IMG/VR virus record: IMGVR_UViG_2563366924_000002
Coordinates: 1-36,117 of that record
Length of the DNA stretch: 36,117 bases
Direction: 5' to 3' (one strand)
Source of the DNA: a virus
Lineage: Duplodnaviria; Heunggongvirae; Uroviricota; Caudoviricetes
A program made the position numbers and the translations under genes. The notes beneath the pieces are model-generated. The model made no database searches and was not told the DNA's origin. It saw nothing but the letters and a program-made list of their open reading frames with translations. Below, one piece after another: positions 1-21,542 of the stretch (position 1 is the stretch's first letter; every line of letters begins with the position of its first letter).

Positions 1-471
1 CTAATAAAATACCCAATTTTCTGTTTCTTGGTTGTGTCCAAAGTTATATTCAATATCTGGTGTTGATGTATCAATATTCTTCATCCCATCAACAAGAGTT
101 GATACAACAGCCAAATCTTGTTTGATTCTCATTAAATGGTACTTCTTCCGGCGCAATAAACTTTCAATGGCAAGTTTCTTCGTTGGGAATGCAAAAGATC
201 TTTCTGCATTTTTTGCTACTTTCTTAATTGCATATCTATTTCTCCTTTGTTTCCATTCCTGTAACCACTGATTTGGTGCTGGTTTAAAATTAACAATCCA
301 ATGCGCAGGAACCAACCATGCATAATGCTCTGTCTGATGAAAAGCTATATATTGAAGTGCGAATATTTTTATCCCATCTTCTTCAACTGTCGCCTGGAAT
401 CTCCAGAAAACAGGCATTCCATCATGTTCAGTTTCTGATTCAGGAAAAGGTACGCTCCATGATTTTGTCAT
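1..471 (-). CDS. Hypothetical protein, N-terminal 156 aa only (gene runs off the window start); AT-rich cargo gene distal to N
   Basis: ORF starting at 471 with GAGGTGA ribosome-binding site 4 nt upstream; strongly AT-rich; no motif recognised. Confidence 0.45.
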   Translation of the reverse strand: MTKSWSVPFPESETEHDGMPVFWRFQATVEEDGIKIFALQYIAFHQTEHYAWLVPAHWIVNFKPAPNQWLQEWKQRRNRYAIKKVAKNAERSFAFPTKKLAIESLLRRKKYHLMRIKQDLAVVSTLVDGMKNIDTSTPDIEYNFGHNQETENWVFY

Positions 472-551
472 ATCTCACCTCAAATAATTCAGTGCAGTGT
501 TTATTCTGTTGTTTATGCCAAAAGAAGGCCGACTATGCGGCATAATTATTT

Positions 552-740
552 TTAACTATCATCAATACATGGCACTTTATTCCAGTCGATATCGTTTTTA
601 TTGTCGTCCCACATGTCTTTGTTTTTGTATTTCTCGCTACATCCTAGGCAAATGTTGTATGGCCTACCGATAAGGTTTAACGAAATACGTTGCATTTCAT
701 TTGATTCAAACATGTATCCACAGAACTGACATTTATGCAT
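552..740 (-). CDS. Small zinc-ribbon-like protein (62 aa, CxxC...CxxC), in the position lambda uses for ral
   Basis: Two Cys pairs (CQFC, CLGC); AT-rich; follows N on the same strand; weak hairpin plus T-run after its stop. Confidence 0.5.
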   Translation of the reverse strand: MHKCQFCGYMFESNEMQRISLNLIGRPYNICLGCSEKYKNKDMWDDNKNDIDWNKVPCIDDS

Positions 741-799
741 ATCTCACCCCTCATACAGTAGCTTACTGCCTAATTTCATTTTCTGGCGACCAACACAAG

Positions 800-1183
800 T
801 CACCTCGCCGTCAGTTGTTTTGATTTCCGGTAGCCTGCCGCGTAAATGGCTACGTTTGGAAGACATACACCAGTTTCTGGTTGCTTATGTCCAAACTCAT
901 TCGCGTACACAATGGCCGCTCGCTCCAGATTGCGTCTGTATTCTTTCTGTTGCCAGATCACGTCCTGTGCCATGAACTTAATTGGCTTAGCGTCTTCTAT
1001 GCGCTCAGGCGTTTCGTGAGTACCTTTAGCCTGAATCTGCGCTCTGCTTAGAGTAGGGCGGTGTAATACTTCTGAACTTATTGCTTCTTCGCGGGCCAGT
1101 ACGCCGTTAGCTAATGCCTTTGCCTTTAAACGCTCACGACGACGAGAACGTGAATTGCCTTTGAACTGAGTTCTGCGTGTCAT
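800..1183 (-). CDS. N: Antitermination protein N (P22 gp24-like)
   Basis: N-terminal arginine-rich motif RSRRRERLKAKALANG resembling lambda N RRRERRAEKQAQWKAAN; C-terminus YAAGYRKSKQLTAR resembling P22 gp24; GGAGG ribosome-binding site; sits downstream of nutL and OL/PL. Confidence 0.8.
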   Translation of the reverse strand: MTRRTQFKGNSRSRRRERLKAKALANGVLAREEAISSEVLHRPTLSRAQIQAKGTHETPERIEDAKPIKFMAQDVIWQQKEYRRNLERAAIVYANEFGHKQPETGVCLPNVAIYAAGYRKSKQLTAR

Positions 1184-1200
1184 ATAGACCTCCTGATGAA

Positions 1201-1430
1201 CTTTGGTGGTGTGGTGGCTGGTAGTCTAGCTCCAGCTTGTTGAGTCTCATTCGGAGGGGTATAACCGGCACCCCAGTGATTTTTCCATGCGACAACGTGC
1301 GCGTTATGGCGGCCTTATCGCCCGCGGCTCCCCATCTCGTCCACGCTATTGCTAGCGTTGGGAGCGCTTCACCGCTCAACAGTAGGTAAGCACTTGCCAG
1401 TGACTAGCTGGCTTCACCACACCCCAAAGT
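1201..1430 (-). promoter_or_regulatory. N leader RNA with long-range inverted repeat enclosing about 200 nt immediately upstream of the N ribosome-binding site
   Basis: Plus 1201-1216 ctttggtggtgtggtg is near-perfect reverse complement of plus 1415-1429 caccacaccccaaag. Confidence 0.45.
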
Positions 1431-1444
1431 TCACTTTGGTTATT

Positions 1445-1459
1445 GCGCTTTGTCAGCGC
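1445..1459 (-). promoter_or_regulatory. nutL boxB hairpin (P22 type, GCGCUGACAAAGCGC on the transcribed strand)
   Basis: Plus gcgctttgtcagcgc; reverse complement matches the P22 boxB as I recall it; located between PL and N. Confidence 0.6.
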
Positions 1460-1517
1460 CGTAGATTCATATTCGAATCGTTGTATATTCACCGCCCTGG
1501 TGAGTAGTGCGTCCTGC

Positions 1518-1620
1518 TGATGGGCAAACTTTATCGGAATGATAAATTAATGGCAATAGCAAAATGATAAATTCTTTTGATTTTCAAATATCGTATTGAT
1601 TCTTATGGTGTTTTATTTTG
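1518..1620 (-). promoter_or_regulatory. OL/PL region: leftward early promoter with repeated TGATAAAT operator half-sites
   Basis: Minus-strand TTGCCA, 17 nt, TAAAGT; repeated atgataaatt motifs at about 1539-1585, shared with the OR region. Confidence 0.5.
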
Positions 1621-1737
1621 TTGTAGGAATTCGACAGGATAAATAAAGAGATTTGAGGGAGATCTGGATTGCGTGGTTTAGCAAGTTGTATCAATCAGTT
1701 TTTCAATAAATACAATGAGTTATGTTTTTTAGGTGGG

Positions 1738-1766
1738 GGATCGAGAGGCAAAGAAAACCCGGCGCT
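1738..1766 (-). terminator. Rho-independent terminator ending the cI operon (minus strand)
   Basis: Hairpin cccggc/gccggg (1748-1765) followed on the minus strand by TTTTCTTT; about 25 nt after the stop of the 118-aa gene. Confidence 0.6.
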
Positions 1767-1787
1767 GAGGCCGGGTTGTGTAGATTC

Positions 1788-2144
1788 TTAGTGAGGTAGT
1801 GATGGCATCATTTTTATTATTAACCCAACACCAGTTCCAACGGCTGCAAGAACTGAACCAATAATAGCCATGGCTTGGAGTCTCATTGCGCTGTGAAGTT
1901 CTGCTTTTGCATTAGCTATGTCTGTTTTAACAGATTCTACATTGGCAGATGTTGCATAGTTAGACTTAATTACAGCGATGTCGGTCGCCATGGTTGCGAC
2001 TTTATCTTCAAGAATTTTTATGCGCTGTAACATGTCACCACCTCCACCGTTACCACCACCATATGTCTCATCATTATGGTGGTTATGTGGAAAATTATCA
2101 ACTTTACTCCTGTCAAGAGGCACAGCGTACAGATGTCGTTTCAT
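1788..2144 (-). CDS. Small membrane protein (118 aa): His/Gly-rich N-terminus, coiled-coil-like middle, single C-terminal TM helix (XhlA-like architecture); second gene of the cI-linked cassette
   Basis: Hydrophobic stretch AMAIIGSVLAAVGTGVGLII near the C-terminus; GGGNGGGGD; start overlaps upstream stop by ATGA; AT-rich. Confidence 0.6.
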   Translation of the reverse strand: MKRHLYAVPLDRSKVDNFPHNHHNDETYGGGNGGGGDMLQRIKILEDKVATMATDIAVIKSNYATSANVESVKTDIANAKAELHSAMRLQAMAIIGSVLAAVGTGVGLIIKMMPSLPH

Positions 2145-2581
2145 TCCTTATCTCTGTTCGGGGTGGTTGAAATAAGAGCGCATTTTTTTTCATCAATAAC
2201 TTCGCTAAGATTACCATCAATGTCTTCAAAGATGCGATAAATTATGTCATATGTTCCTGTTTCTATAAGTTTGATGTTTTTAACGAAAAGATATGTGCCA
2301 ACCACAACATATTTTTCATTGACAGGAGAAAACATAAATGTTTGCAGTTGCTCTTGATTGCTAGAGATATCAGGTAAAACCGATTCTCCATTGAATACGA
2401 CATCAAGTTCGGTAGTGTATTTTTTTTCGTGCTCGAAGTACATTATTGCAGTTAGGTAAAATGAGCCGGAACAAGGGTATTCTTCCGACACTATTATAGG
2501 ATCTGGTGTCATAAAAGGAGTGATTGCCAGCCCGGGTTTTACCGCCGTTGTGTAGATTGTTATTATTTTTTCTTCTCTCAT
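2141..2581 (-). CDS. Hypothetical soluble protein (146 aa); first gene downstream of cI (rexA position)
   Basis: AAGGAAA ribosome-binding site; 69-bp gap after the cI stop; AT-rich; no motif recognised. Confidence 0.6.
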   Translation of the reverse strand: MREEKIITIYTTAVKPGLAITPFMTPDPIIVSEEYPCSGSFYLTAIMYFEHEKKYTTELDVVFNGESVLPDISSNQEQLQTFMFSPVNEKYVVVGTYLFVKNIKLIETGTYDIIYRIFEDIDGNLSEVIDEKKCALISTTPNRDKE

Positions 2582-2650
2582 GAAGATATTTCCTTAAAAT
2601 CATCCAAACGTCTCTTCAGGCCACTGGCTATCAGCTATGGGACGATGAAG

Positions 2651-3355
2651 TCACGAACTTTTCAGCCACTCCCTTGCCTCGATGTCATCCAGATGGCGAG
2701 ATTGCTTCAGAATACCAGCCACATACTCCACCTTTGCTACTTGATGATAAGGCAACGTTATTGGCCTGTGGTCTTGGTTGATGCTTGTAAATTGGTATTC
2801 TCCATCTCTGTCATAGCCAAGAACCTTAATCATGTTGTGTCCTTCAACGGTTCTGACAAACACCTCATCACCAGGGAATACTTTGGTGTTAGGCTCAATG
2901 AGTACATATTCTCCTGATTTTATTCTAGGCCACATGCTGTCTCCTTTCACACGAAGGCCAAAGGCATCTGGATCATCGCTATAAATTTTGAGCCACCCAT
3001 CGCGCTCTTCGGTCATCTCGATGGCACCATCAACACCAAGAATTGCCTCACCAACCACGCGCACTAACCCTTTTCTTACCTGACCGACAAAAGTTAAAGA
3101 ATCTGAGCATGATGCAATTGGTGTTACATCATGTACCAAATCAAGCCACCCATTAGGTAACCCAAGTGCGGCTTCAAATTTTCTTGCTAGTTTATCCCCT
3201 ATGTTTCGAGTGCTTTTTTCACCGGAGACTTGCGTGAGTTGAGAAGGGCTAACCCCAAGCTTATCGGCAAAGCTTGCATTAGTGTTACCCGCGATTTTTT
3301 TATGCTCATCTAGCAAAAACGCCAGATTCGATTTGCGAATATCTTTGTTTTCCAT
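2651..3355 (-). CDS. cI: CI-type prophage repressor (N-terminal HTH, C-terminal S24 LexA-like peptidase domain)
   Basis: HTH segment LGVSPSQLTQ; peptidase motif VKGDSMWPRIKSGEYVLIEP; divergent from the cro-like gene across an operator region. Confidence 0.9.
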   Translation of the reverse strand: MENKDIRKSNLAFLLDEHKKIAGNTNASFADKLGVSPSQLTQVSGEKSTRNIGDKLARKFEAALGLPNGWLDLVHDVTPIASCSDSLTFVGQVRKGLVRVVGEAILGVDGAIEMTEERDGWLKIYSDDPDAFGLRVKGDSMWPRIKSGEYVLIEPNTKVFPGDEVFVRTVEGHNMIKVLGYDRDGEYQFTSINQDHRPITLPYHQVAKVEYVAGILKQSRHLDDIEAREWLKSS

Positions 3356-3468
3356 CTCACAATTTTCCCTCTATTTAGCAAATGGATAAATACGCAATAT
3401 GATAAATTTACATTGCGGTTGATTTATCAAAATGGTAAAGTTATTCTGTATGATAAACGGAGGCACTA
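3356..3468. promoter_or_regulatory. OR region with divergent PR/PRM and repeated TGATAAAT operator half-sites
   Basis: Candidate PR -35 TTGATT (3419-3424), 17 nt, -10 TATTCT (3442-3447); tggataaat, atgataaat, gatttatca, atgataaac copies. Confidence 0.6.
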
Positions 3469-3702
3469 ATGAGTAATGAACTACTACGCTGGCGAAAAGA
3501 GGCTTCTAGTGAGGAATGGAAGCGACTCGCCGCATTAGCGAAAACTTCAGTTGGCTATCTTGACCAGATTGCATATGGATTTCGAAGAGCTTCCCCTGAT
3601 AAAGCGAATGCAATCGAAGAAGCTACTCGTAATTTCACGGCCTATAAACCCGTGAAAAAGGAAAACCTGGTGTTCGTATCGCGTAGAGCATCAGCAGCAT
3701 AA
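3469..3702 (+). CDS. Cro-like early repressor (YdaS-type HTH protein)
   Basis: 77 aa, GGAGG ribosome-binding site, first rightward gene after OR; HTH region resembling YdaS from the Rac prophage rather than lambda Cro. Confidence 0.6.
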   Translation: MSNELLRWRKEASSEEWKRLAALAKTSVGYLDQIAYGFRRASPDKANAIEEATRNFTAYKPVKKENLVFVSRRASAA

Positions 3703-3709
3703 GTAACAC

Positions 3710-3755
3710 CGCTCTTTTCACAATGGACATTCGTCCTACGTCGCTGACAAAGCGA
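3710..3755 (+). promoter_or_regulatory. nutR: boxA-like CGCTCTTTT plus boxB hairpin tcgctgacaaagcga
   Basis: boxA-like element at 3710-3718; boxB stem tcgc/gcga with loop tgacaaa at 3741-3755, same loop as nutL boxB. Confidence 0.5.
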
Positions 3756-3840
3756 GCCCCAAGATATCTGACCAACTAAGGTCATATGCGTTTCCACGCA
3801 TACCTTTCAACTAACTATTCACTATTGGAAATATTAAGAA

Positions 3841-4137
3841 ATGACACAAGCAAGTTACAGCAAGCCAACACAGCGAGAAATTGATCGCGCTGAAACTGAT
3901 TTACTCATCAACCTGTCAACGCTTACCCAGCGCGGTCTGGCAAAGATGATTGGCTGTCATGAATCGAAGATAAGCAGAACGGACTGGAGATTTATTGCTT
4001 CGGTCTTGTGTGCTTTCGGAATGGCATCAGACATCAGTCCGATTAGCAGGGCTTTTAAGTATGCGCTTGATGAAATCACAAAGAAAAAATCCCCGGCCGC
4101 CACCGAGGATTTTAAGCAAATTGATATGCAATTCTGA
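3841..4137 (+). CDS. cII: CII transcriptional activator
   Basis: C-terminus KKKSPAATEDFKQIDMQF closely resembles lambda CII KKRPAATERSEQIQMEF; HTH region; correct position. Confidence 0.85.
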   Translation: MTQASYSKPTQREIDRAETDLLINLSTLTQRGLAKMIGCHESKISRTDWRFIASVLCAFGMASDISPISRAFKYALDEITKKKSPAATEDFKQIDMQF

Positions 4138-4169
4138 GGTAATTACTGGATCAATCCACAGGAGTAATT

Positions 4170-4331
4170 ATGACAAAACGTCGTAAGAAATACCAGGAAA
4201 AAGAAGAGATTCGACACCCTGATTCACCTGAGGGATTAGTGGTAGCCGCAGCAAATAACAGGGCGTTCGCAGAGCGCCTTGTTGGTGTTTACAGACTAGC
4301 CAAAGCAGGAGTGAAACATGGGCGTCGTTAA
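4170..4331 (+). CDS. Small basic hypothetical protein (53 aa)
   Basis: GGAG ribosome-binding site 6 nt upstream of ATG; overlaps the O-like gene start; below the 60-aa track cutoff, found by hand translation. Confidence 0.3.
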   Translation: MTKRRKKYQEKEEIRHPDSPEGLVVAAANNRAFAERLVGVYRLAKAGVKHGRR

Positions 4332-5208
4332 GTTAGCTGATTACAGGCATAACCCTGTACAACATCAGGAGGCATCCAGTATGGGGTATGTCTCTATACA
4401 CCGCCAGTTTATGGACAGCAGGCTCTATAAGGACTCTCAGGCAGTACATCTTTGGCTTCACTTAATCCTCAAGGCTAATCACGAATCTACTGTCGTCAAT
4501 ACGGATATCGGGCCGATAACTGTTGATCGCGGTCAGATGATAACTGGACGCCCGTCGCTGGTCAGAGAAACATTCATCCCCGACAACAAAGTTCGGAGCT
4601 TATTGCGGACTTTTGAGTCGAAAGGGATGCTTAATATTTGCTCGATGGGGAAGAAATTTAGCCTGTTTACAATCGTTAAATATGACGATTTTCAGGCAAA
4701 AAATTGTCCAACGGTTGTCCAACGGTTGTCCAACGCAAACACCAGTAATTGCGCGGCTCTCAGCGGAGATTGTCCAACGGTTGTCCAACGGTTGTCCATA
4801 AACAATAATATAAATAATATCTCTAATACTGACGTATTAGAGAGTGCCACAGCAGACAAAAAGTCTGACAAGAAAAAACCTTCCGTCAGCTGTCAGGATG
4901 TTGTCGATGCTTACCACGAAATCCTTCCTGAAGCGCCAAGAATCCGCGCACTGAATGACAAGCGTAAAAACCAGATCCGAACGTTCTGGCGCAAAGCCGG
5001 AGTGATAACCCGCCAGCTTGACGGGCATGGGTTCACGATGCAGGACTGGAGAAATTATTTGAGCTACGTAGGCGAAAATTGCCGATGGATGTTCGAAGAA
5101 CGCCCAAACCATCAACGCGGAACCGTCTGGCACAAAAAGGGATTTGATTTCCTGCTTAACGACAATACCTACCTGAAAGTTCGTGAGGGTGAACACGATG
5201 ACCGATAA
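4318..5208 (+). CDS. Replication initiation protein (lambda O-like replisome organiser) with the origin inside its coding sequence
   Basis: Position before the helicase; iteron cluster inside the gene; stop overlaps the helicase start. Confidence 0.75.
   Translation: MGVVKLADYRHNPVQHQEASSMGYVSIHRQFMDSRLYKDSQAVHLWLHLILKANHESTVVNTDIGPITVDRGQMITGRPSLVRETFIPDNKVRSLLRTFESKGMLNICSMGKKFSLFTIVKYDDFQAKNCPTVVQRLSNANTSNCAALSGDCPTVVQRLSINNNINNISNTDVLESATADKKSDKKKPSVSCQDVVDAYHEILPEAPRIRALNDKRKNQIRTFWRKAGVITRQLDGHGFTMQDWRNYLSYVGENCRWMFEERPNHQRGTVWHKKGFDFLLNDNTYLKVREGEHDDR
4704..4830. repeat. Origin of replication: two clusters of three direct 11-bp iterons (ttgtccaacgg) followed by an AT-rich stretch
   Basis: ttgtccaacggttgtccaacggttgtccaacg at 4704-4736 and again at 4770-4800; then aacaataatataaataatatctctaatac. 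Confidence 0.75.
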
Positions 5209-6634
5209 TTTTTATGCGCCGCCCCATAGCATCGAGGCTGAGCAGGCGGTGATTGGTGGATTGCTTCTGGATGATGACAGCAGTGAGCGCGTCCAGAAAG
5301 TTCTGGCGATGCTGAAGCCTGATTCATTTTACAGCCGACCACACAAAATCCTTTTCGAAGAAATAACCAGAATGCACCGGGAGCAAAAGCCAGTAGATGG
5401 CCTGACGCTTTTCGATGAACTGGAGCGTAAATCGTTAACGGCGTCTGTTGGCGGTTTTGCTTATATCGCTGAGATCGCAAAGAACACGCCAAGCGCCGCA
5501 AACATCGTTGCCTATGCAATGCAGGTTCGTGAAACCGCAATGGAACGCTACGCCATTAACCGCATGACTGAAGCGACGGAATTGCTCTATTCACGCAACG
5601 GAATGACTGCAACGCAGAAGTACGAAGCTATTCAGGCGATTTTCACGCAACTGACAGACCATGCAAAAACCGGATCGCGTCGCGGCCTTCGCTCATTTGG
5701 TGAGGTCATGGAAGACTGGGTTAGCGACCTTGAGAAGCGATTTGACCCGTCAGGCGAACAACGAGGAATGAGCACAGGGATCCCATCGCTGGACAGGATG
5801 CTGTCACCGAAAGGTCTGGTGAAAGGCTCTCTGTTCGTCATTGGCGCTCGCCCTAAGATGGGGAAAACGACGCTATACAGCCAGATGGCAATCAACTGTG
5901 CGGTGCATGAGAAAAAGCCCGCTCTGATGTTCAGCCTTGAAATGCCAGGTGACCAGATACTGGAAAAACTGGTAGGACAGAAGTCAGGTGTTAACCCGAA
6001 TATTTTTTACCTTCCGGCGACAAATGACGCTGATGACGGCTATCAGGGTGATTACGATGGTGACTTCAACAGGGCGATCGAAACAGCCAATCGCTTGAGT
6101 GAAATCGACCTGCTTTACATCGACGACACGCCGGGATTATCTCTGGCTCAAATCGTCAGCGAAAGCCGTCGAATCAAGCGAGAAAAAGGATGCGTTGGCA
6201 TGATTCTGGTCGATTACCTGACACTAATGACTGCTGAGAAGGCCGATCGCAACGACCTTGCTTACGGCATGATCACCAAAGGATTGAAGAACCTTGCCAA
6301 AGAGCTTGATTGCGTTGTTGTGCTTCTGACACAGCTTAACCGCGCATTGGAAAGCCGAACCAATAAACGCCCATTACCAAGTGACTCGCGCGATACAGGG
6401 CAGATTGAACAGGATTGCGATTATTGGGTTGGGATCCATCGTGAAGGCGCTTTTGATGACAGTGTTCCACCTGGTGAAACCGAACTAATCCTTCGTCTCA
6501 ATCGTCATGGCAATACCGGCACGGTGTATTGCATTCAGGCAAATGGCGCTATTTATGACACAGACCAACAGTCTGCTGAAATGCGCCGACGTGAACGCGA
6601 GGAACCGCAGTCCAAGAAGAAAGGAGGATTCTGA
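5198..6634 (+). CDS. DnaB-family replicative helicase (P22 gp12-like)
   Basis: N-terminus PPHSIEAEQAVIGGLLLD is DnaB-like; Walker A GARPKMGKTT; start taken at MTDNFY, overlapping the O stop. Confidence 0.85.
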   Translation: MTDNFYAPPHSIEAEQAVIGGLLLDDDSSERVQKVLAMLKPDSFYSRPHKILFEEITRMHREQKPVDGLTLFDELERKSLTASVGGFAYIAEIAKNTPSAANIVAYAMQVRETAMERYAINRMTEATELLYSRNGMTATQKYEAIQAIFTQLTDHAKTGSRRGLRSFGEVMEDWVSDLEKRFDPSGEQRGMSTGIPSLDRMLSPKGLVKGSLFVIGARPKMGKTTLYSQMAINCAVHEKKPALMFSLEMPGDQILEKLVGQKSGVNPNIFYLPATNDADDGYQGDYDGDFNRAIETANRLSEIDLLYIDDTPGLSLAQIVSESRRIKREKGCVGMILVDYLTLMTAEKADRNDLAYGMITKGLKNLAKELDCVVVLLTQLNRALESRTNKRPLPSDSRDTGQIEQDCDYWVGIHREGAFDDSVPPGETELILRLNRHGNTGTVYCIQANGAIYDTDQQSAEMRRREREEPQSKKKGGF

Positions 6635-6661
6635 TGACCATCTACATCACTGAGCTTGTAA

Positions 6662-6694
6662 CAGGCCTGCTGGTAATCGCAGGCCTTTTTATTT
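6662..6694 (+). terminator. Rho-independent terminator after the replication genes
   Basis: Hairpin caggcctgc...gcaggcct followed by TTTTTATTT. Confidence 0.55.
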
Positions 6695-6723
6695 GGGGGA
6701 GAGGGAATTGGAGGCTTTAAGAA

Positions 6724-6939
6724 ATGAGTACGATAGCTGAGCTTGTCAGGGCTAATTTTCGTGAAGAGTTGGTGCGTTGGTATCGGTATCGTTCATCGTC
6801 CAGTTTGCCGATTGATGAGTTGTATGAGCATTCACCTGCTGCACGACGCTATCCGCGTGACCGTGTTCTTCGACGGTTGTTCAAACTCAACAATGAGTTT
6901 CAGCGCAACAGAATTATTCGGAGTCTGGATTTAAAGTAA
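6724..6939 (+). CDS. Hypothetical protein (71 aa) at the start of the nin region
   Basis: GGAGG ribosome-binding site upstream; an alternative overlapping frame (6743-6934) is less convincing. Confidence 0.4.
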   Translation: MSTIAELVRANFREELVRWYRYRSSSSLPIDELYEHSPAARRYPRDRVLRRLFKLNNEFQRNRIIRSLDLK

Positions 6940-6949
6940 AGGAGTGAGC

Positions 6950-7156
6950 ATGACAAATCAGCAGCAAATAGAGTTCATCCTTGAGCAGATTCGAAAAATG
7001 CGAGAAAAGAACCAGCCAGACATGATGGAAATATGGAGACGCCAGCAGGAAGAATACCGCAAGCATATTTTTGGTGAGAGAAAACAGGATGACTGGAGCC
7101 TATATGGCTATGGCACCAGGACAAATAAAAACGGATATAGCCTTTACACATATTGA
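6950..7156 (+). CDS. Hypothetical protein (68 aa)
   Basis: AAGGAG ribosome-binding site before the ATG at 6950. Confidence 0.45.
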   Translation: MTNQQQIEFILEQIRKMREKNQPDMMEIWRRQQEEYRKHIFGERKQDDWSLYGYGTRTNKNGYSLYTY

Positions 7157-7164
7157 GGAATTCC

Positions 7165-7575
7165 ATGAAACAGACAATTTTCCTCAGGAGTAAGCAACAA
7201 CAGCAAGCCGCAATCACCGCCATCCTCGCAACACCACTCGATAAAGACAAGCCAGTTACCATCCGCATTACTGACTACAAGCGCAACCTTGACCAGAACG
7301 CAAAATTTCACGCGATGCTGGCGGATATCGCAAGTCAGGTTCAATGGTGCGGCAAATGGTTAAAACCAGAACAATGGAAGGTTTTGTTGATAAGCGGTCA
7401 TGCAGTGGCAACAAAGCAGGAAGCTGATGTTTTGCCCGGCCTTGAAGGCGAATACGTCAACATTCGCGAAAGCAGCGCGCAGATGAGCGTGAAGCGTATG
7501 GCAAGTCTGATCGAGTACACAACAGCATGGGCTATTGGTCAGGGTGTCAGATTTACCGACAGGAGGTACGAATGA
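7165..7575 (+). CDS. ninB: NinB (Orf-family recombination mediator)
   Basis: [31 protein letters not shown] parallels lambda NinB VTIQERNRSLDQNRKLWACLGDVSRQVEW. Confidence 0.85.
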
Positions 7576-7748
7576 GACGACAGCGACGAAGTATCACCGA
7601 CATAATCTGCGAAAACTGCAAATACCTTCCAACGAAACGCTCCAGAAATAAACGCAAGCCAATCCCAAAAGAATCTGACGTAAAAACCTTCAACTACACG
7701 GCTCACCTGTGGGATATCCGGTGGCTAAGACATCGTGCGAGGAAATGA
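7572..7748 (+). CDS. Small basic nin-region protein (58 aa), NinD-like by position
   Basis: GGAGG ribosome-binding site; start overlaps the NinB stop. Confidence 0.4.
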
Positions 7749-8161
7749 CAATGGATTATTCACAGTTAAGTGATTTTGAAATTAACAGACGAGTATGTGA
7801 GGCTTTAGATATGGAGGAGCATTTCTTCATACCTGATGACGAAGCAGACTTCGATTCTGAGCTCCCAACTGACGAAAGAGGTCCTATTTGGCAGACGCAA
7901 AAAAGGGATATTAATGGCTTCCGTTCTTCAAACGGAAATTGCTTCAATCCTTGCAATAATCCTGAATATGCGTGGCCAATTATCACTGAAAACAAAATCA
8001 GCATAATGTTTGATAGTACCGATACGAGATATGAAGGCGAATATCACGAGTGGTGTGATGCGATTTCATCTTGTCAAAAGTTCGGAATTCAGTATCAGTC
8101 TAATCCACTCCGCGCCGCCATGATTGTCTTTCTCATGATGCAGGACGCCAATAATGCTTAG
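7745..8161 (+). CDS. Nin-region protein (NinX / DUF2591-like)
   Basis: ATGA overlap with the upstream gene; N-terminus [15 protein letters not shown] resembles NinX-family proteins from memory. Confidence 0.45.
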
Positions 8162-8330
8162 CCCATCCCAATCCCTTCAATACCAGAAAGAAAGCGTCGA
8201 GCGGGCTTTAACGTGCGCTAACTGCGGCCAGAAGCTGCATGTGCTGGAAGTTCACGTGTGTGAGCACTGCTGCGCAGAACTGATGAGCGATCCGAATAGC
8301 TCAATGTACGAGGAAGAAGACGATGAGTGA
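8154..8330 (+). CDS. ninF: NinF (58 aa zinc-finger protein)
   Basis: Hand translation [58 protein letters not shown], near-identical to lambda NinF as I recall it. Confidence 0.7.
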   Translation: MLSPSQSLQYQKESVERALTCANCGQKLHVLEVHVCEHCCAELMSDPNSSMYEEEDDE

Positions 8331-8535
8331 TTACCTGAAATGGTATCTCTGTTACCGCTGGTTAATTAAGTTTGCTGTAAAAGACTGGATGACAGCGGAT
8401 GCCAACAAACTTAAGCAAAGAAAGGACTATTACTACGCCAGAATGAAGGAAAACTACTGCTCAATTCGCACTCGCATATTTATTAAAAAAGACCTTCAGT
8501 CAATTCTTCAATTGCGAGGGAAGGTAAATGGCTAA
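8323..8535 (+). CDS. Hypothetical nin-region protein (70 aa)
   Basis: Start overlaps the NinF stop; no motif recognised. Confidence 0.45.
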   Translation: MSDYLKWYLCYRWLIKFAVKDWMTADANKLKQRKDYYYARMKENYCSIRTRIFIKKDLQSILQLRGKVNG

Positions 8536-8818
8536 TCTACGCAAAGAAGCACGTGGCAGAGAATGCCAGGTACGTATTTACGGCGTATGCAATGGCAATC
8601 CTGAAACTACAGTTCTGGCACATTACCGGATGGCTGGAATTTGCGGAACGGGAATGAAACCTGACGACCTGATCGGAGCATGGGCTTGTAGCGCGTGTCA
8701 CGATGAAATCGACCGACGCATCCATAATCTCGACAACAAAGACGCCAGACTTTACCACCTCGAAGGCGTGATCAGGACGCAGGCGATACTGCTGAAGGAG
8801 GGGAAGATTAAGTCATGA
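8528..8818 (+). CDS. DUF1364-family protein (YbcO-like, Cys/His-rich)
   Basis: 96 aa with CxVRxxGxC...C..CH pattern; same size and position as ybcO in the DLP12 prophage. Confidence 0.5.
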   Translation: MANLRKEARGRECQVRIYGVCNGNPETTVLAHYRMAGICGTGMKPDDLIGAWACSACHDEIDRRIHNLDNKDARLYHLEGVIRTQAILLKEGKIKS

Positions 8819-9210
8819 AAACCTACCGAATAAAATTGCCGTGGCCTCCTTCAAACAACCGATATTGGCGACACTCAAGAGGGATCCACTACATCAGCGA
8901 CTGGGGGAAGAGATACCGAAAAGAAGTAATCGAAATAATCCAGCAACAACAGCTAGACATCAAAATCACACCTCGCATCAGAATAACCATCCACGCAGCA
9001 CCTCCCGATAACCGCAAACGAGATTTGGACAATCTGCCCAAAGCCGTTTTTGACGCACTCACCAGTGCGGGCTTCTGGCTGGATGACGGTCAGATAGACG
9101 ATATGCGCATCAAGCGCTATCAGGCGATTAAAGGTGGAATGCTTGTGTTGGTTGTGACTGAAACATGCGGGAGTTTGCCAATGATTACAGAGCTACTGGA
9201 GGCCGCATGA
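8815..9210 (+). CDS. rusA: RusA Holliday-junction resolvase
   Basis: Acidic motif NRKRDLDNLPKAVFDALT typical of RusA; about 130 aa. Confidence 0.85.
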   Translation: MKTYRIKLPWPPSNNRYWRHSRGIHYISDWGKRYRKEVIEIIQQQQLDIKITPRIRITIHAAPPDNRKRDLDNLPKAVFDALTSAGFWLDDGQIDDMRIKRYQAIKGGMLVLVVTETCGSLPMITELLEAA

Positions 9211-9413
9211 CGTTCTCAGTAAAAACCATTCCAGACATGCTCGTTGAAGCATACGGAAACCAGACAGAAGTAGCACGCAGACTGAAATGTAGTCGCGGTA
9301 CGGTCAGAAAATACGTTGATGATAAAGACGGGAAAATGCACGCCATCGTCAACGACGTTCTTATGGTTCATCGCGGATGGAGTGAAAGAGATGCGCTATT
9401 ACGAAAGAATTGA
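9207..9413 (+). CDS. ninH: NinH
   Basis: [37 protein letters not shown] matches lambda NinH as recalled; ATGA overlap with rusA. Confidence 0.7.
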
Positions 9414-10059
9414 TGGCAGCAAATACCGAAATATTTGGGTAGTTGGCGATCTGCACGGATGCTACACGAACCTGATGAAAAAACTGGAGACGATAGGATT
9501 CGACACCAAAAAAGACCTGCTTATCTCGGTTGGCGATTTGGTCGATCGCGGTACAGAGAACGTCGAATGCCTGGAATTAATCACATTCCCCTGGTTCAGA
9601 GCTGTACGTGGAAACCATGAGCAAATGATGGTTGATGGCTTATCAGAGCGTGGAAACGTTAATCACTGGCTGTTTAATGGCGGTGGCTGGTTCTTTAATC
9701 TCGATTACGACAAAGAAATTCTGGCTAAAGCTCTTGCCCATAAAGCAGATGAACTTCCGTTAATCATTGAACTGGTGAGCAAAGGTAAAAAATATGTCAT
9801 CTGCCACGCCGATTATCCTTGTGACGAATACGAGTTTGGAAAGCCAGTTGATCATCAGCAGGTAATCTGGAACCGCGAACGAATCAGCAACTCACAAGAC
9901 GGGATCGTAAAAGAAATCAAAGGAGCGGACACGTTCATCTTTGGTCATACGCCAGCAGTGAAACCACTCAAGTTTGCCAACCAGATGTACATCGACACCG
10001 GCGCCGTGTTCTGCGGAAACCTCACGCTGGTAAAGGTGCAAGGCGGTGAACATGCGTAA
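9391..10059 (+). CDS. ninI: Ser/Thr protein phosphatase (lambda NinI-type)
   Basis: Metallophosphatase motifs GDLHG, GDLVDRG, GNHE; near-identical over long stretches to lambda phosphatase as recalled. Confidence 0.9.
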
Positions 10060-10693
10060 ACCATCCCGCCGTAAGTGCAAAGTATGCGGTGAATACTTCG
10101 TGCCTAAATTCCACGACATCCGGATCCGCTGGTGCAGCCCTGAGCACGGCACAATCCTCGCAATGGAAGAACGCGAAAAGGAGAAGGTGAAAGCCGCTGC
10201 TAAGCGCATCAAGGAGCAGAAGGACGCCGAGAAGGCCGGTCGCAAACGCCGCAAGGAACGGCTGGCAGAGCTTCGGCCTGCCGGTTACTACAAGGCGCAG
10301 GCTCAGCAGGCGTTCAACGCCTACATCCGAGCGCGTGACGCTGATTTGCCATGCATCAGCTGCGGAGAGACCAATCCACCTGATTTACATGGCGGCCAGT
10401 GGGACTGCGGCCACTTCAAAACGGTCGGCGCCAACCCAGAACTTCGCTTTGAAGAGCGCAACGCCCATAAGCAGTGCAAATCGTGTAATGCCGGTGCCGG
10501 AAAGTACACCGCCAAGGAGGCGACCGTAGCGCAGCAATACGAAGCCGGTCTGGTTGCTCGTTACGGACAGGAATACGTCGACTGGCTCAATGGCCCCCAC
10601 GAAATGACCAACTACCGCCGGGAAGATTTCATCCGGATCCGCGATGAGTACCGCGCCAAACTCAAAGCATTGAAACAACGGGAGGCCGCATGA
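10046..10693 (+). CDS. ninG: NinG (Rap) recombination-associated protein
   Basis: [28 protein letters not shown] and HKQCKSCN parallel lambda NinG motifs. Confidence 0.8.
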
Positions 10694-11073
10694 GCACAGA
10701 AACAGAAATTGAACTGGGCAAGGTTGTCGCTTTCCCGTCAAAGAATAACGACCTACAGGATGGGCTCGTTATTCAGCGCGAAGGACAGAAGGTAATGTGC
10801 CTGCACTCCACCGTTTGGGTTAACGAAAAGGACCGGACCTTACGCTGCAGGAAGTGCGAAACGTTGATCGAGCCTTTTGACTTCCTGATGACGCTCTGCG
10901 ACCAGGAGTCTCGCTATATGGAGAACGTGAAATATCTCCGCCGGGAAGAAAAGCAGCGCCGTCAGAATATCGAGAAACTCATTCAGATTGAGAAGAACGC
11001 CAAATCCCGCATACGCCGCGCTGGGGATAAGTCACCACTTCCTCTCTGGCAGAACGAGAGGGTGGACGAATGA
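10690..11073 (+). CDS. Hypothetical protein with Cys pairs (127 aa) between ninG and the Q-position gene
   Basis: CxxC-type pair (CRKCE) and basic C-terminal tail. Confidence 0.5.
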   Translation: MSTETEIELGKVVAFPSKNNDLQDGLVIQREGQKVMCLHSTVWVNEKDRTLRCRKCETLIEPFDFLMTLCDQESRYMENVKYLRREEKQRRQNIEKLIQIEKNAKSRIRRAGDKSPLPLWQNERVDE

Positions 11074-11187
11074 CACGTGACCAGATTATCCGCTACCAGG
11101 CAGAAAGCGTTAAGCGCGCCAACCTGCCGCCAATAGCAAAGCACAGCCAGACCAAAACCCACCAGCCACAGAAGGAAGCCGCATAAT
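11071..11187 (+). CDS. Small hypothetical ORF (38 aa)
   Basis: Hand translation; start overlaps the upstream stop; below the track cutoff. Confidence 0.25.
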
Positions 11188-11995
11188 GAACCTCGAATCA
11201 ATCGCTAAATACTTTGCGCCTAAATCACCGATGTTCAGTGACTCTCCTCGCGCAACCGCATCAGACAGTCTCACCGGCACTGACGTTATGGCGGCGCTTG
11301 GCCTTGCTGGCCACAAGTGCGGGTTTGGTTTCGATCTTTACCTCTCGAAAATCGGCATTAGCAGCCCAGATATAGCACTGGAGAGACTCTATGAGCAGGC
11401 ACGTAAGTTATCAGGTAAATTCAGAGCACTGTCTGAACTCGATGAATCAGCTCGGTCAGGCGTGCTTAAGGTTCTCTGCGCTTTTGCATACCAGGATTAT
11501 TCAAGAAGTGCTGCCAGCACTCGAAAATGTGATTGCTGTGATGGTGGCGGATTTACAGAGGCGCAAGTGTTTACCAACAAGGTCTCATACCCATGGGGGA
11601 AACCGCCTTACTGGTCGAAAATGTCGCGTGCCGTTCGCCCAAGCGACTGGGAGAGCTGGACACAGGCGCGTGAGGTGGTGCGAGTTAAGTGCAAGCCGTG
11701 TAACGGAAAAGGCGTTATCAGCAATTCGTGTCGCTGCCATGGCAAAGGTAAGGTGCTGGACAAGGCAGAAAGCGATCGCCAGGGCGTTCCAGTAATGAAA
11801 GCCTGCGACCGCTGCGGTGGTAGAGGTTACGCCAGGCTTAAGTTCTCAACGGTAATTGAGGGCGTTAATACTGTTGCGGAGATAAAGAAAACGGCGGCAT
11901 ATGAGCAACTTCAGCCGCTATTTGAGGAGTTGGTCGCCGAATGCCATAAACAGGAGTCTATGGCTGATTCCATTCTCTCAAAAGTAACGAGATGA
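11186..11995 (+). CDS. Putative late-gene antiterminator (Q position) with four DnaJ-type CxxCxGxG zinc-finger repeats
   Basis: Last gene before the late promoter, terminators and lysis cassette; repeats CDCCDGGG, CKPCNGKG, CRCHGKGK, CDRCGGRG. Confidence 0.6.
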   Translation: MNLESIAKYFAPKSPMFSDSPRATASDSLTGTDVMAALGLAGHKCGFGFDLYLSKIGISSPDIALERLYEQARKLSGKFRALSELDESARSGVLKVLCAFAYQDYSRSAASTRKCDCCDGGGFTEAQVFTNKVSYPWGKPPYWSKMSRAVRPSDWESWTQAREVVRVKCKPCNGKGVISNSCRCHGKGKVLDKAESDRQGVPVMKACDRCGGRGYARLKFSTVIEGVNTVAEIKKTAAYEQLQPLFEELVAECHKQESMADSILSKVTR

Positions 11996-12037
11996 AAATA
12001 ATTTTCCCTAATGTTGAAAATATATAGGAAATAGGTA

Positions 12038-12066
12038 TTGCATTTCGCGGAAAAACTGTATAGATT
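12038..12066 (+). promoter_or_regulatory. Candidate late promoter PR-prime
   Basis: TTGCAT (12038-12043), 17 nt, TAGATT (12061-12066), immediately downstream of the Q-position gene. Confidence 0.45.
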
Positions 12067-12116
12067 CATCTCTAACGCTGGGAATACGTTCAGTCGTTCC
12101 GAAGCCAAAAAAATTC

Positions 12117-12150
12117 AAGCCCGAGGTTAACGCCTTGGGCTTTTTTTATT
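12117..12150 (+). terminator. Rho-independent terminator (tR-prime-like) about 50 nt downstream of the candidate late promoter
   Basis: Hairpin aagcccgaggttaacgccttgggctt followed by TTTTTTTATTT. Confidence 0.6.
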
Positions 12151-12409
12151 TCTTTGTGGCCTAAATCGCTTCGAGCCAAAAAAACGCGGAGAACGACATC
12201 ACCCCTCTCCGCAATAACGACTCAATCTCATACCCGCTTGTCTTTCTTTTATCCACAAAGAGGTAAAGCCATAACTTAGTGGAAATGGTAACAGCTAAAA
12301 ACTATTTGAAAAGCTAATTATTTTTTGCATCAACTGGCTATTCTTAAGGATTGTTTAATTTTTTGCTTTCCTAGCGAGAAAGAAGCTCCGGAAACTATCA
12401 ATCAATACA

Positions 12410-12437
12410 AGGCTGCCGTTCGGCGGCCTTTTTTATT
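12410..12437 (+). terminator. Second rho-independent terminator upstream of the holin gene
   Basis: Hairpin aggctgccgttcggcggcct followed by TTTTTTATT. Confidence 0.6.
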
Positions 12438-12473
12438 CCTAGCAACAGCACTAGCACAAAGCGAGGTGAGAGT

Positions 12474-12698
12474 ATGTATCGCATGGACAAACTAACCATT
12501 GGTGCTGCCTATGGCGCTTCAGCCTGGAGCATCCTAAACGGCATGTTGAATGCCTACAGCCCCGAGCAGTGGAACGCTATCGGCGTGCTGGTGGGTATCA
12601 TCATTGCCGTAATGACGTATCTGACAAATCTCTATTTCAAAATCCGCGAAGACAACCGCCGCAGCAGGAGCCGAGATGAACCCAACGTTGAGGAATAA
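12474..12698 (+). CDS. Holin (phage 21 S21 pinholin-like, dual-start motif)
   Basis: MYRMDK dual start; [13 protein letters not shown] matches the S21 pinholin as recalled; two hydrophobic segments. Confidence 0.8.
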
Positions 12699-13170
12699 GC
12701 TGGTGGGTGCCATTGTTGGCGGATCAGGGGCAATCACTATTGCTGCAGTAATGCTGGGCAATGCGGATGGACTCGAAGGTCGGCGTTATTACGCCTATCA
12801 GGATGTGGTCGGCGTCTGGACCGTTTGCGATGGGCACACTGGTACCGACATTCGCCGCGGTCACCGATATACCGACAAAGAGTGTGACAACCTGCTTAAG
12901 GCAGATCTGCGAAAGGTGGCAAGCGCCATCGACCCGCTGATCAAGGTTCGCATCCCTGAGCCAACCCGCGCCGCGCTTTACTCCTTCACCTATAACGTTG
13001 GCTCTGGTGCTTTTGCCAGCTCGACGCTGCTGAAGAAGCTGAACTCCGGTGATGTTCCGGGTGCGTGTAAAGAACTGCAGCGCTGGACTTATGCTGGCGG
13101 CAAGCAGTGGAAGGGGCTGATCACCCGGCGCGAGATTGAGCGTGAAGTCTGCGAGTGGGGCCAGAAATGA
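12676..13170 (+). CDS. SAR endolysin (T4-lysozyme-like muramidase with signal-anchor-release N-terminus)
   Basis: Gly/Ala-rich weakly hydrophobic N-terminus [19 protein letters not shown]; catalytic E...D...T in [24 protein letters not shown]. Confidence 0.85.
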
Positions 13171-13634
13171 GCCGATTAACCGCAATCATCTGCGCTGTCG
13201 TTATCTGCCTGCTGGTTTCCATGGCCTGGGCCATTAACCACTACCGCGACAACGCCATCACCTACAAAGACCAGCGCGATAAAGCCACAAAGAACCTCCG
13301 CCTGGCTAATGCCACCATCAAAGATATGCAGACCCGCCAGCGTGATGTCGCTGCACTGGATGCCAAATACACGAAGGAGTTAGCTGATGCGAAAGCTGAA
13401 AATGATGCTCTTCGGCGCAAGCTTGATAATGGTGGCAGGGTGCTCGTCAAAGGAAAATGCCCTGTGCCATCCTCAGTCGAAGCCTCCAGCGCCTCCGGCA
13501 TGGGCAATGATGCCACCGTCGAACTCTCTCCAGTTGCTGGACGAAACGTTCTCGGTATCAGATCCGGAATCATCAGCGACCAAACATCACTGAGAGCGCT
13601 GCAGGAATACATCAACACGCAGTGCCTGAAATGA
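13167..13634 (+). CDS. Rz: Rz inner-membrane spanin
   Basis: [18 protein letters not shown] and [27 protein letters not shown] nearly identical to lambda Rz as recalled. Confidence 0.85.
13387..13593 (+). CDS. Rz1: Rz1 outer-membrane lipoprotein spanin, embedded in the +1 frame of Rz
   Basis: Lipobox LIMVAGC; Pro-rich [13 protein letters not shown] resembles lambda Rz1. Confidence 0.8.
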
Positions 13635-13684
13635 ACAATCATAGCCTCGTAATAGCGAGGCTTTTTACTACCCGAGGGTAAATA

Positions 13685-13873
13685 ATGTCATCTCCAATCA
13701 TGAAGTATTTCGCTTATCAACACCTCCCTGCGCATCTGCAGGAAGTAAGTAAGCCAATCGGTGACCTTGCGACACTGATGGATGAATCACTGCCGGACAG
13801 TGCTGAAAAGTCAGCAGGTCTCCGCAAGCTGCTCGAAGCTAAAGATGCGCTGGTGCGAGCAAAGCTGGGGTAA
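13685..13873 (+). CDS. Hypothetical protein (62 aa) downstream of the spanin genes
   Basis: ORF only; no motif recognised. Confidence 0.4.
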   Translation: MSSPIMKYFAYQHLPAHLQEVSKPIGDLATLMDESLPDSAEKSAGLRKLLEAKDALVRAKLG

Positions 13874-14326
13874 GTCATTACAAAGCCTATCTACGGGTGG
13901 GCTTGATAATGAAACCGTGATTTACATCCCCACAATCCTGGTATGTAAAAGATAGTTCAGGCGAGAACAGATTTAACTAAATCTGTGCACCACCAGTTAC
14001 GGCAGTACCACGAAGCAACCCAAGCCAGTAAGTGGGGAAATAACACTGGCATCCACTGAAAGATGAACCTCCAGCCTTATGGCAAAAAAGATTCTTTGTG
14101 GTGGCGGGCTGATGGAAAGACATCGGTTATTGCAGAGACCATTCAATGAGTGGTCTCGACAATAGCTTATACCCTACACGGGATAACTTAACTGATATCC
14201 CTTTTAACGGATAAACGGAGCCAACAATGGCAGAGATTATTCCCATGACTGAAGAACAGAAATTCCAGTTAGAGATTTACAAGCTGGTCATGAACCAGAA
14301 CGCCGCCGGGCGTGGAGGTTAGCTTG

Positions 14327-14683
14327 ATGCCTGCGTTAATACCGAGGGCATGCAGAAAACGCGGCTGCCCTGGCACAACCACATACCGCTCAGGCTATTG
14401 TCCCAAACACCTTAACGAAGGCTGGCAGCAGCATCAGCGAGGACAGAGCAGACATCAGCGAGGTTATGGCAGCAAGTGGGACAGGCTGCGCCAAATCGTT
14501 CTCGAAAGAGATAAACACCTTTGCCAGGAATGCCTGCGGAATGGAAGGTATACACCAGCTGAGACGGTGGACCACATAAAGCCGAAAGCTCACGGTGGCA
14601 CTGACGACCTTTCTAATCTGGAATTAATTTGCCGCGGCTGCCATAAAGCTAAGACAGCACGAGAGCGCCTGAACAGAAATTAA
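14327..14683 (+). CDS. HNH endonuclease (terminase-associated)
   Basis: CQECL...VDHIKPKAHGGTDDLSNLELICRGCH; located just upstream of cos and the terminase genes. Confidence 0.85.
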   Translation: MPALIPRACRKRGCPGTTTYRSGYCPKHLNEGWQQHQRGQSRHQRGYGSKWDRLRQIVLERDKHLCQECLRNGRYTPAETVDHIKPKAHGGTDDLSNLELICRGCHKAKTARERLNRN

Positions 14684-14696
14684 GTAACGAGGTGAA

Positions 14697-14852
14697 GATG
14701 ACTGAATCGAAACATGGTTCAGGGCTTCCGCACGCCCATGCTGCCTGCATAGCGGATGGATGCGAATTATCGGTACGATCCCGTAACAGCCACTACTGTG
14801 CAAAGCGCATCATGACTCAACGAAACAGAGAATGGAGAAGAGCGGCGTGGTA
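14697..14852 (+). CDS. Small Cys/His-containing hypothetical ORF (51 aa)
   Basis: Hand translation MTESKHGSGLPHAHAACIADGCELSVRSRNSHYCAKRIMTQRNREWRRAAW; below the track cutoff. Confidence 0.3.
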
Positions 14853-14908
14853 ATAGGCTGTGATGCAAACGGCTACCCGCTCGATCCTGCGTCTCACTGG
14901 AGGACATA

Positions 14909-15112
14909 ATGAAAGACCTCATCATTGAATACCGAGACGGTAAGTTTGTTCAGCTGGCGATTGATGGCGTGGAGATGAAGCACGTAACGTCTATCCAGTT
15001 CTCCCACACCGTAGGCGAGGACGTACCGACATTGACCGTCTCAGGACATGTGTGGTCCGAGTATGGGAAAGGCGATCACAAACTCGAACAGGTAGACAAA
15101 CATTCGGCATAG
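14909..15112 (+). CDS. Hypothetical protein (67 aa)
   Basis: ORF with GGAGG ribosome-binding site upstream. Confidence 0.45.
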   Translation: MKDLIIEYRDGKFVQLAIDGVEMKHVTSIQFSHTVGEDVPTLTVSGHVWSEYGKGDHKLEQVDKHSA

Positions 15113-15179
15113 CGCGGCGGCGGCAAGTCGATTATCTATCATGTGAAATCATTTCAAATGCAATTACATCAAATGAGAA

Positions 15180-15310: not shown

Positions 15311-15323
15311 GGAGTTTTCGATT

Positions 15324-18861: not shown

Positions 18862-18874
18862 GAGCACTTTCCTG

Positions 18875-19723: not shown

Positions 19724-19732
19724 GGACCCTTT

Positions 19733-21533: not shown

Positions 21534-21542
21534 GAGGACTTT

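Follow-up and report, generated by a model that had tools for sequence, protein, structure and literature searches.

The window considered in this work is a stretch of 36,117 nt of phage DNA (Caudoviricetes; positions 1 to 36,117 of record IMGVR_UViG_2563366924_000002), and its subject is a cassette of two small genes, called here A and B, next to the repressor gene cI. The gene order is cI, A, B, terminator, OL/PL (left operator and promoter), and N, with A and B on the cI strand; this layout follows from the presence of an N-like open reading frame (ORF) at 800..1183. The repressor gene (2651..3355, minus strand) encodes a protein of 234 aa with a helix-turn-helix and a Peptidase_S24 domain (Pfam PF00717, E 3.8e-16; phrog_4, E 6e-38). 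It is a backbone gene of the H-19B/mEp506/BP-4795 immunity type, with 97%–99% DNA identity to the genes of those phages. After a gap of 69 nt (2650..2582) comes gene A (2581..2141, minus strand; 146 aa), the variable partner of the pair, preceded by a Shine–Dalgarno-like AAGGAAA (2595..2589, minus strand) that, as read from the sequence, places AAGGA 9 nt 5′ of the ATG. The long form of gene B (2144..1788, minus strand; 118 aa) begins inside the end of A, the stop of A and the start of B sharing ATGA at 2144..2141 on the minus strand. A preliminary description of this DNA had reported two coupled minus-strand genes behind cI, with the same gap, ribosome-binding site (RBS), and overlap, and all of these are borne out. 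It had also placed the genes in the rexA/rexB position, and the cassette does lie between cI and the immunity-region terminator on the cI strand. Both A and B are genuine genes, with ratios of nonsynonymous to synonymous substitution rates (dN/dS) against diverged orthologs of 0.12 for A and 0.11–0.21 for B.

The cassette is accessory cargo, one of several alternatives found at exactly the same site. In blastn comparisons with mEp506 (L002) and BP-4795 (L003), the flanks are homologous (96%–99% identity) up to 1776–1778 on one side and again from 2599–2604 on the other. Because homology breaks there, the terminator belongs to the backbone, and the swapped segment spans ~1779–2600 on the minus strand, with both genes and the RBS of A. 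In mEp506, HicA/HicB/HicC occupy the site, whereas in BP-4795 one finds there a gene for the HigB toxin, a transcriptional-regulator gene, and a hypothetical gene, a set that agrees with the HigBAC of lambdoid prophages described in a preprint on toxin–antitoxin–chaperone systems (10.1101/2024.02.24.581848). P63C or DUF2335 genes are present at the same site in other Escherichia coli prophages. The suggestion that A and B are acquired cargo in a cI-linked slot is thus confirmed by the breaks of backbone identity at 1778 and 2599–2604 and by the HicABC and HigBAC systems of mEp506 and BP-4795. The interval between cI and PL is known as a variable defense locus (10.1101/2024.02.24.581848; PMC8585504), and the toxin–antitoxin (TA) systems of this slot are reported to act against phages (10.1101/2024.02.24.581848). 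The interval also houses BstA and is a mosaic hotspot (PMC8585504, citing Degnan 2007).

The terminator at the end of the cassette (stem 1777..1756, T tract to ~1748, minus strand) is intrinsic, with an 8-bp GC-rich stem and a 6-nt loop, TTTTCTTTG; its folding free energy is −15.2 kcal/mol (z −3.15). It is common to mEp506, BP-4795, and hundreds of E. coli prophages with other cargo. There is no terminator between cI and A, and the cassette ends at that of the backbone. The preliminary description was right to see a rho-independent terminator before OL/PL, but its position is not 1738–1766, and it stands ~200 bp away from OL.

The full-length cassette occurs in only four of 5426 complete E. 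coli genomes. Most relatives with the same backbone do without it, and the phage's own late genes are located elsewhere, so the cassette is dispensable for the lytic cycle. One prophage, of strain ECONIH5, carries a 100% match to the cassette. It has only window positions 1412–4179 in common (99.9% identical), and the modules beside this segment are just 89%–98% identical or unrelated. The immunity module including the cassette has, as judged from these alignments, moved between different lambdoid backbones. That the window is simply the ECONIH5 prophage is ruled out, sharing being limited to 1412–4179; elsewhere the window belongs to an HK97-like siphophage and encodes terminase, capsid, and tail proteins of its own. 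The ECONIH5 prophage itself (L099, ~3685–22659) contains an IS5 and, flanked by two copies of a DUF2280 gene, a satellite-like insert that encodes two tyrosine recombinases and a TOPRIM/DUF927 primase and includes an Icd-like, an Ash, and a TumE-family TA gene. The late region of the window is a different one and HK97-like. In E. coli C 236-04A (NZ_CP109924.1, H29), the match to the cassette covers query positions 1–782 only, and A (P0003) is annotated with 122 aa (77% coverage); this copy looks like a 5′-truncated one with a different upstream junction.

Protein B is the constant element of the cassette. In the AlphaFold2 model, residues 1–35 are disordered and are followed by helices 36–64 and 66–112. 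The GGGNGGGGD sequence occupies residues 29–37, and a single hydrophobic segment is present (Kyte–Doolittle maximum of 2.23 in a 19-residue window, at residue 92). This transmembrane (TM) segment, AMAIIGSVLAAVGTGVGLII (1815..1874, minus strand; residues 91–110), is rich in small residues (GxxxA, GxGxG). The Gly-rich stretch, the coiled-coil-like middle, and the single C-terminal TM helix had been recognized before and stand as described. Since B lacks a signal sequence and has its TM segment at the very C-terminal end, it is presumably a tail-anchored protein of the inner membrane that lies almost wholly in the cytoplasm. The first 37 residues (2034..2144, minus strand) comprise an N-terminal peptide (MKRHLYAVPLD...PHN; N-peptide below) and the Gly-rich linker, and they are linked to the partner, as discussed below. 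They are under constraint, the first 37 codons having dN/dS values of 0.13–0.25 in five of six comparisons.

Inside gene B, a second Shine–Dalgarno sequence, GGAGG (2045..2041, minus strand), is located 7 nt 5′ of an ATG at 2033..2031 (Met38). Initiation there would yield a predicted short isoform of 81 aa (2033..1788, minus strand; Met38 to His118) with only the coiled coil and the TM segment. The GGAGG is present in 43 of 48 distinct family members, with a spacer of exactly 7 nt in 41. When the Gly codons were resampled synonymously under three usage models, means of 16–30 of 48 were obtained and none of 5000 runs reached 43; GGAGG is therefore selected at the nucleotide level, beyond the glycines alone. 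Among 54 linker-bearing genes, the internal start codon is ATG in 51 and GTG in three; in the three distinct genes with Val at this position, the codon is GTG each time. Independent gene callers have picked the internal start as well (calls of 69 aa in L005/L007 and of 81 aa in P0041/P0042). The short isoform matches the solo forms of 78 aa described below in length and sequence.

The start of the long form is of another kind. An in-frame long-form start falls within −23 to +5 nt of the partner stop in all 46 distinct junctions, and in the window this start has no properly spaced Shine–Dalgarno sequence (AAGGA abuts the ATG). The long-form start probably depends, on this pattern, on ribosomes finishing A. 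B has thus two in-frame starts, each with a means of initiation and each conserved in the family, and gene B very likely yields, by its layout, two products, one of 118 aa that is linked to A and one of 81 aa that is organized like the solo proteins. A promoter-like sequence, TTGATA-17-CATAAT (10 matches of 12), is seen at 2101->2073 on the minus strand in the 5′ part of B. It lies ~20–30 nt 5′ of the internal RBS, would transcribe short B only, and resembles the lambda PLIT for rexB. An internal promoter at this place was not retained: the whole scan is at chance level (six sites found vs. 5.4 expected).

Protein A was described as soluble and without a recognizable motif, and both points hold, with no hydrophobic segment (Kyte–Doolittle maximum 1.19) and no Pfam match. 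It is predicted to be a cytoplasmic immunoglobulin (Ig)-like β-sandwich protein: the model, a confident one (predicted local distance difference test, pLDDT, of 89.4), is a two-sheet sandwich of eight strands and matches Ig-like domains significantly in structure. A is acidic (23 D+E vs. 13 K+R). Clustered at 50% identity, the family of A gives 59 groups, almost all of them single-domain proteins of 143–153 aa; its remote members belong to PHROG families without an assigned function.

The distribution of the partners was surveyed around B in 80 viral contigs and among 64 distinct B genes; family counts come from mutually related sequences. An A-family gene abuts B in 37 of the 80 contigs, and in 32 of these 37 a cI-like ORF is directly upstream on the same strand. 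Within Enterobacterales, the order repressor, A, B recurs with differing repressors (217, 231, 234, and 226 aa) in prophages of Salmonella, Enterobacter, Serratia, and Pantoea. By upstream partner, the 64 distinct B genes divide into 31 with an A-family gene, 23 with a protein containing four cysteines (4-Cys), seven with another partner (five of them a divergent A), and three with none. The 4-Cys partner (90–131 aa) is unrelated to A and has two CxxC pairs, with only weak matches to zinc-ribbon and Lar-like proteins. A 136-aa partner in Pantoea shows no similarity by BLASTP, but the family hidden Markov model matches it weakly (E 1e-4), and it is treated as a divergent A.

These comparisons support the view that B is the constant module and that the upstream partner is interchangeable and evolves faster. 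Between L019 and the window, B is 80% identical but A only 23%; between L028 and L030, short B is 95% identical and A 23%. Three C-terminal TM types of B combine freely with either partner class. The preliminary description had proposed a soluble sensor with a small membrane effector: the design of a soluble partner with a membrane protein is upheld by the constancy of B and the swappable, faster-evolving partner, and the roles of sensor and effector are putative. Three findings go beyond what had been described: gene B has a conserved internal start, a 4-Cys protein can take the place of A, and the N-peptide is linked to the partner.

The N-peptide follows the partner. The motif N[VI]..FP is found in 12 of 18 N-peptides with a 4-Cys partner vs. 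one of 31 with A (Fisher p 2e-6), and PH[NT] in 17 of 31 with A vs. two of 18 with 4-Cys (Fisher p 0.003). Within the A-bearing pairs, identity in A correlates with identity in the N-peptide (Mantel rho 0.15, p 0.0045) and more weakly with that in the rest of B (rho 0.08, p 0.05). Because the N-peptide tracks the partner and solo forms lack both, this covariation suggests that the N-peptide is the docking site of the partner.

The version with 4-Cys and B can occupy a second slot for accessory genes (morons), directly upstream of the tape-measure gene (L052, 2934–4706; L086, 3260–4684). There, a lipoprotein gene is present 3′ of B, and a gene for a KilA-N protein (L052) or an Arc-like ribbon-helix-helix protein (L086) precedes the cassette. 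Solo genes for the core of B also exist, with 78–92 aa; they begin at the coiled coil and have neither Gly linker, N-peptide, nor partner. A conserved chromosomal site outside prophages, between DUF903 (ygdR-like) and TerC/mutH, holds them in Escherichia sp. ESNIH1 and Pseudescherichia (L013–L015, 5001–5237; L100–L102, ~4001–4270). Solo relatives of B are widespread in Xenorhabdus and Oxalobacteraceae. In Xenorhabdus, many are longer (ORFs of 130–440 aa with an AVIKSNYAT core), often several per genome (L114, L116, L121, L122, L126, L129, L130, L132, L134, L137, L142, L145, L149, and L156, with the match at ~4001 in most).

Searches against known families give little for either protein. No match for A or B is obtained in Pfam (E ≤ 1) or NCBIfam, nor by tblastn against 50,697 GenBank phage records, and in PHROGs only families of unknown function are matched. 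The view that neither protein is RexA or RexB is supported by the searches of Pfam (E ≤ 1) and PADLOC (E ≤ 10), in which neither of the two has a match. A PADLOC search with variants of the family gives coiled-coil matches at noise level only. A literature search for the accessions WP_001549084 and WP_001549085 found no papers. Gifsy gipd474, remAIN, and HepS are other immunity-region systems and differ from the cassette. Some relatives of B are labeled "hemolysin XhlA" in databases, and B had been compared with XhlA-type membrane proteins: the architecture (coiled coil and single C-terminal TM) agrees, but membership of the family does not follow, since relatives of B score 15.8–19.8 bits (E 9e-4 to 2e-2) against a gathering threshold of 34.7 bits for XhlA (PF10779) and B of the window has no match.

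The surrounding immunity region has the expected signals. A PL-like promoter, TTGCCA-17-TAAAGT (1556->1528, minus strand), overlaps the OL operator, a perfect palindrome TTTATCATTCCGATAAA inside it at 1530–1546. Three OR (right) operators (3374–3390, 3423–3439, and 3441–3457, without assigned strand) are located between cI and cro, at the expected place of PRM/PR, and a cro-like ORF follows at 3469..3702 on the plus strand. The operator pattern has 18 matches vs. 4.2 expected, clustered at OL and OR. An Rfam scan of window positions 1–5000 detected no RNA family. The cassette, which had been called markedly AT-rich, is AT-rich only modestly, with a GC content of 0.36–0.41 vs. 0.43–0.46 for cI and 0.49–0.52 for the replication genes, and the DNA left of N is as rich in AT as the cassette.

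In our judgment, there is about an even chance that the cassette, a rare and mobile one, serves the lysogen in phage exclusion or abortive infection, by a Rex-like logic carried by unrelated proteins. Exclusion or abortive infection is the most likely function because of the position, the fellow cargo in the slot, and the pattern of evolution. The cassette would be expressed in the lysogen. B would be the constant effector, as the comparison of relatives indicates, a tail-anchored protein whose coiled coil lies in the cytoplasm and whose TM helix abounds in small residues. The long form, translationally coupled to the stop of A, would present its N-peptide on a glycine tether, and the short form, from the internal GGAGG-7nt-ATG and reduced to coiled coil and TM, would be the membrane effector, the long form being regulatory. 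A would be a fast-evolving Ig-like binder that is kept at the membrane, probably docked on the N-peptide because A and the N-peptide form one recombination unit; elsewhere, the zinc-ribbon-like 4-Cys protein with its own cognate N-peptide would substitute for it. A would recognize a component of the infecting phage, and recognition would alter the assembly of long and short B, as an antiholin controls a holin. The membrane would then be permeabilized or depolarized and the infection halted. This specific sensor mechanism with two isoforms we consider clearly less likely than a defense or exclusion role as such. Purifying selection on A, on B, and on the N-terminal part of B speaks for such a function, as does the recurrence among family members of sub-threshold XhlA matches in which much of the profile is aligned. 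A broader and more doubtful proposal, which we advance tentatively, is that of a hitherto unrecognized modular family of prophage immunity cassettes in Gamma- and Betaproteobacteria, where a tail-anchored effector, made as two isoforms by way of the conserved internal RBS, would bear swappable cytoplasmic sensors (Ig-like or 4-Cys) on a cognate peptide of the long form, where holin/antiholin logic would be used in abortive infection, and where sensor and docking peptide would be exchanged as one recombination unit.

Several points weigh against a role in exclusion. Neither A nor B has a match among the 5027 models of PADLOC-DB 2.0 (E ≤ 10). The location in a defense hotspot is suggestive, not diagnostic, and the Ig-like fold of A is generic and uninformative on its ligand. 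The binding of A to B is deduced from covariation alone, with a weak Mantel correlation (rho 0.15), the N-peptide motifs were defined only after inspection of the data, and the counts are not independent, the members of the family being interrelated. Finally, the chromosomal solo genes indicate, from their sequence context, that the core of B also has a housekeeping-type role.

This last point leads to the explanation by lysogenic conversion unrelated to phages, for instance through a stress- or membrane-physiology factor. Tail-anchored coiled-coil proteins like E. coli ElaB/YqjD act in stationary phase, and solo B-core genes sit in conserved chromosomal sites and occur also in Oxalobacteraceae and Xenorhabdus without phage context. 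On the other hand, the partnered form is almost confined to prophage moron slots, and rapid partner turnover with shuffling of modules fits an arms race better than housekeeping; we regard conversion as improbable. A factor that assists lysis or sets its timing when the phage itself multiplies (a holin helper like XhlA or an antiholin-like regulator) seems to us no more probable than that. The dual-start layout is typical of holins, the XhlA-like architecture comes with sub-threshold similarity, and in the lysis cassette of PBSX xhlA is preceded by xepA, a gene for a β-sandwich protein (PMC6834076). Yet the cassette belongs to the immunity region, on the cI strand before the backbone terminator and outside the late operon, and most phages of the same backbone exist without it. 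The neighbors of the relatives are repressor, N or Kil, and tail genes; a place beside holin and endolysin genes, as in a late lysis cassette, is not observed.

Superinfection exclusion at entry is a further alternative: B in the inner membrane would block genome injection, as P22 SieA and HK97 gp15 do, and the partner would modulate or stabilize it. B is by prediction a small inner-membrane protein, and the pairs of 4-Cys and B directly upstream of the tape-measure gene, beside a lipoprotein gene, occupy the place that the exclusion moron gp15 has in HK97. SieA blocks injection from the inner membrane (10.1101/2023.08.15.553423). However, the known blockers are single proteins, whereas the cassette has a cytoplasmic, fast-evolving partner tightly coupled to B in nearly every prophage copy, and with only about eight residues of B that would face the periplasm, little surface is left to meet an injection apparatus. 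An entry block is unlikely in our estimation, if somewhat less so than the other alternatives. Slightly below it we place a TA-like addiction pair, in which B would be a membrane toxin, A an antitoxin encoded upstream, and stabilization of the prophage the main role. The upstream partner with its overlapping start fits such a pair, A is acidic, and sister phages hold the HicABC and HigBAC TA–chaperone systems in the same slot. But no homology to any TA family is detected (Pfam, NCBIfam, and PADLOC), and the TA systems of the slot being themselves reported as anti-phage (10.1101/2024.02.24.581848), the explanation largely merges with that of exclusion or abortive infection. Besides, a short B initiated internally, without the peptide on which A would dock, would escape its antitoxin.

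As a candidate for exclusion or abortive infection, the cassette can be compared with several systems. The resemblance to lambda RexA/RexB lies in the organization: two genes on the cI strand, after cI and before a terminator and OL/PL, a soluble protein and then a membrane protein. By the searches of Pfam and PADLOC the sequences are unrelated, and B has an internal start and an interchangeable partner. RexB has four TM helices, B one C-terminal TM. RexA is a DNA-binding protein of 279 aa (PMC11077077), whereas A is an Ig-like domain of 146 aa. RexB is thought to act on the membrane once activated by RexA, and the RexA:RexB ratio matters (PMC8585504). With PBSX XhlA (PF10779), B shares a small size and a coiled coil followed by a C-terminal TM, the weak matches being mostly at positions 3–66 of the 67 in the profile, and in PBSX, too, the gene of a soluble β-sandwich protein, xepA, is directly 5′ of xhlA (PMC6834076). 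For the lysis function of PBSX, XhlA is reported to be essential (Krogh 1998, cited by PMC6834076). The differences are that relatives of B remain below the Pfam cut-off and that XhlA is encoded in the late lysis operon of a Gram-positive phage.

Among dual-start membrane genes, the holin–antiholin gene of lambda (S105/S107) and P22 sieB/esc each make two in-frame products that differ at their N-termini and whose ratio controls a membrane or abortive event. The starts in lambda S are two codons apart, vs. 37 codons in B, and no homology is known; what the long form of B has in addition is a peptide specific to the partner and tethered by glycines. In HK97, the gene next before that of the tape measure encodes gp15, a small exclusion protein of the inner membrane. 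The 4-Cys and B version is found in the same position; gp15 is the product of a single gene and has a different topology. The HigBAC and HicABC systems (prophages of BP-4795, NT1F31, and mEp506) have the same insertion site, cI, and flanks; unlike the cassette, they have no membrane component and consist of three genes, the toxins being of RNase type and the chaperone SecB-like. HigBAC is described as anti-phage (10.1101/2024.02.24.581848). BstA of Salmonella BTP1 is likewise encoded directly 3′ of the prophage repressor, with high expression in the lysogen and an abortive effect (PMC8585504); unlike the cassette, it consists of one large protein that associates with DNA, self-immunity is conferred by a DNA-based element, and it is unrelated in sequence. 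The cassette appears, on the basis of these comparisons, to be a prophage immunity-region exclusion candidate made of unrelated parts and distinguished by its dual start and its partner swapping, and neither RexAB, a demonstrable member of XhlA, a known TA system, nor a PADLOC system.

The mechanism of Rex is poorly understood after more than 60 years (PMC8585504). The present cassette is far smaller (a binder of 146 aa and a single-TM protein of 81/118 aa) and could be an easier model of how a cytoplasmic sensor activates a membrane effector. The partner swaps (Ig-like or 4-Cys) with matching peptides are natural specificity variants that can be compared, and the conserved internal start offers precise, testable mutants. 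If the cassette is active, a compact defense family has been missed by current detection tools such as PADLOC, and the cI–N interval and the moron slot before the tape-measure gene would draw on one pool of cargo.

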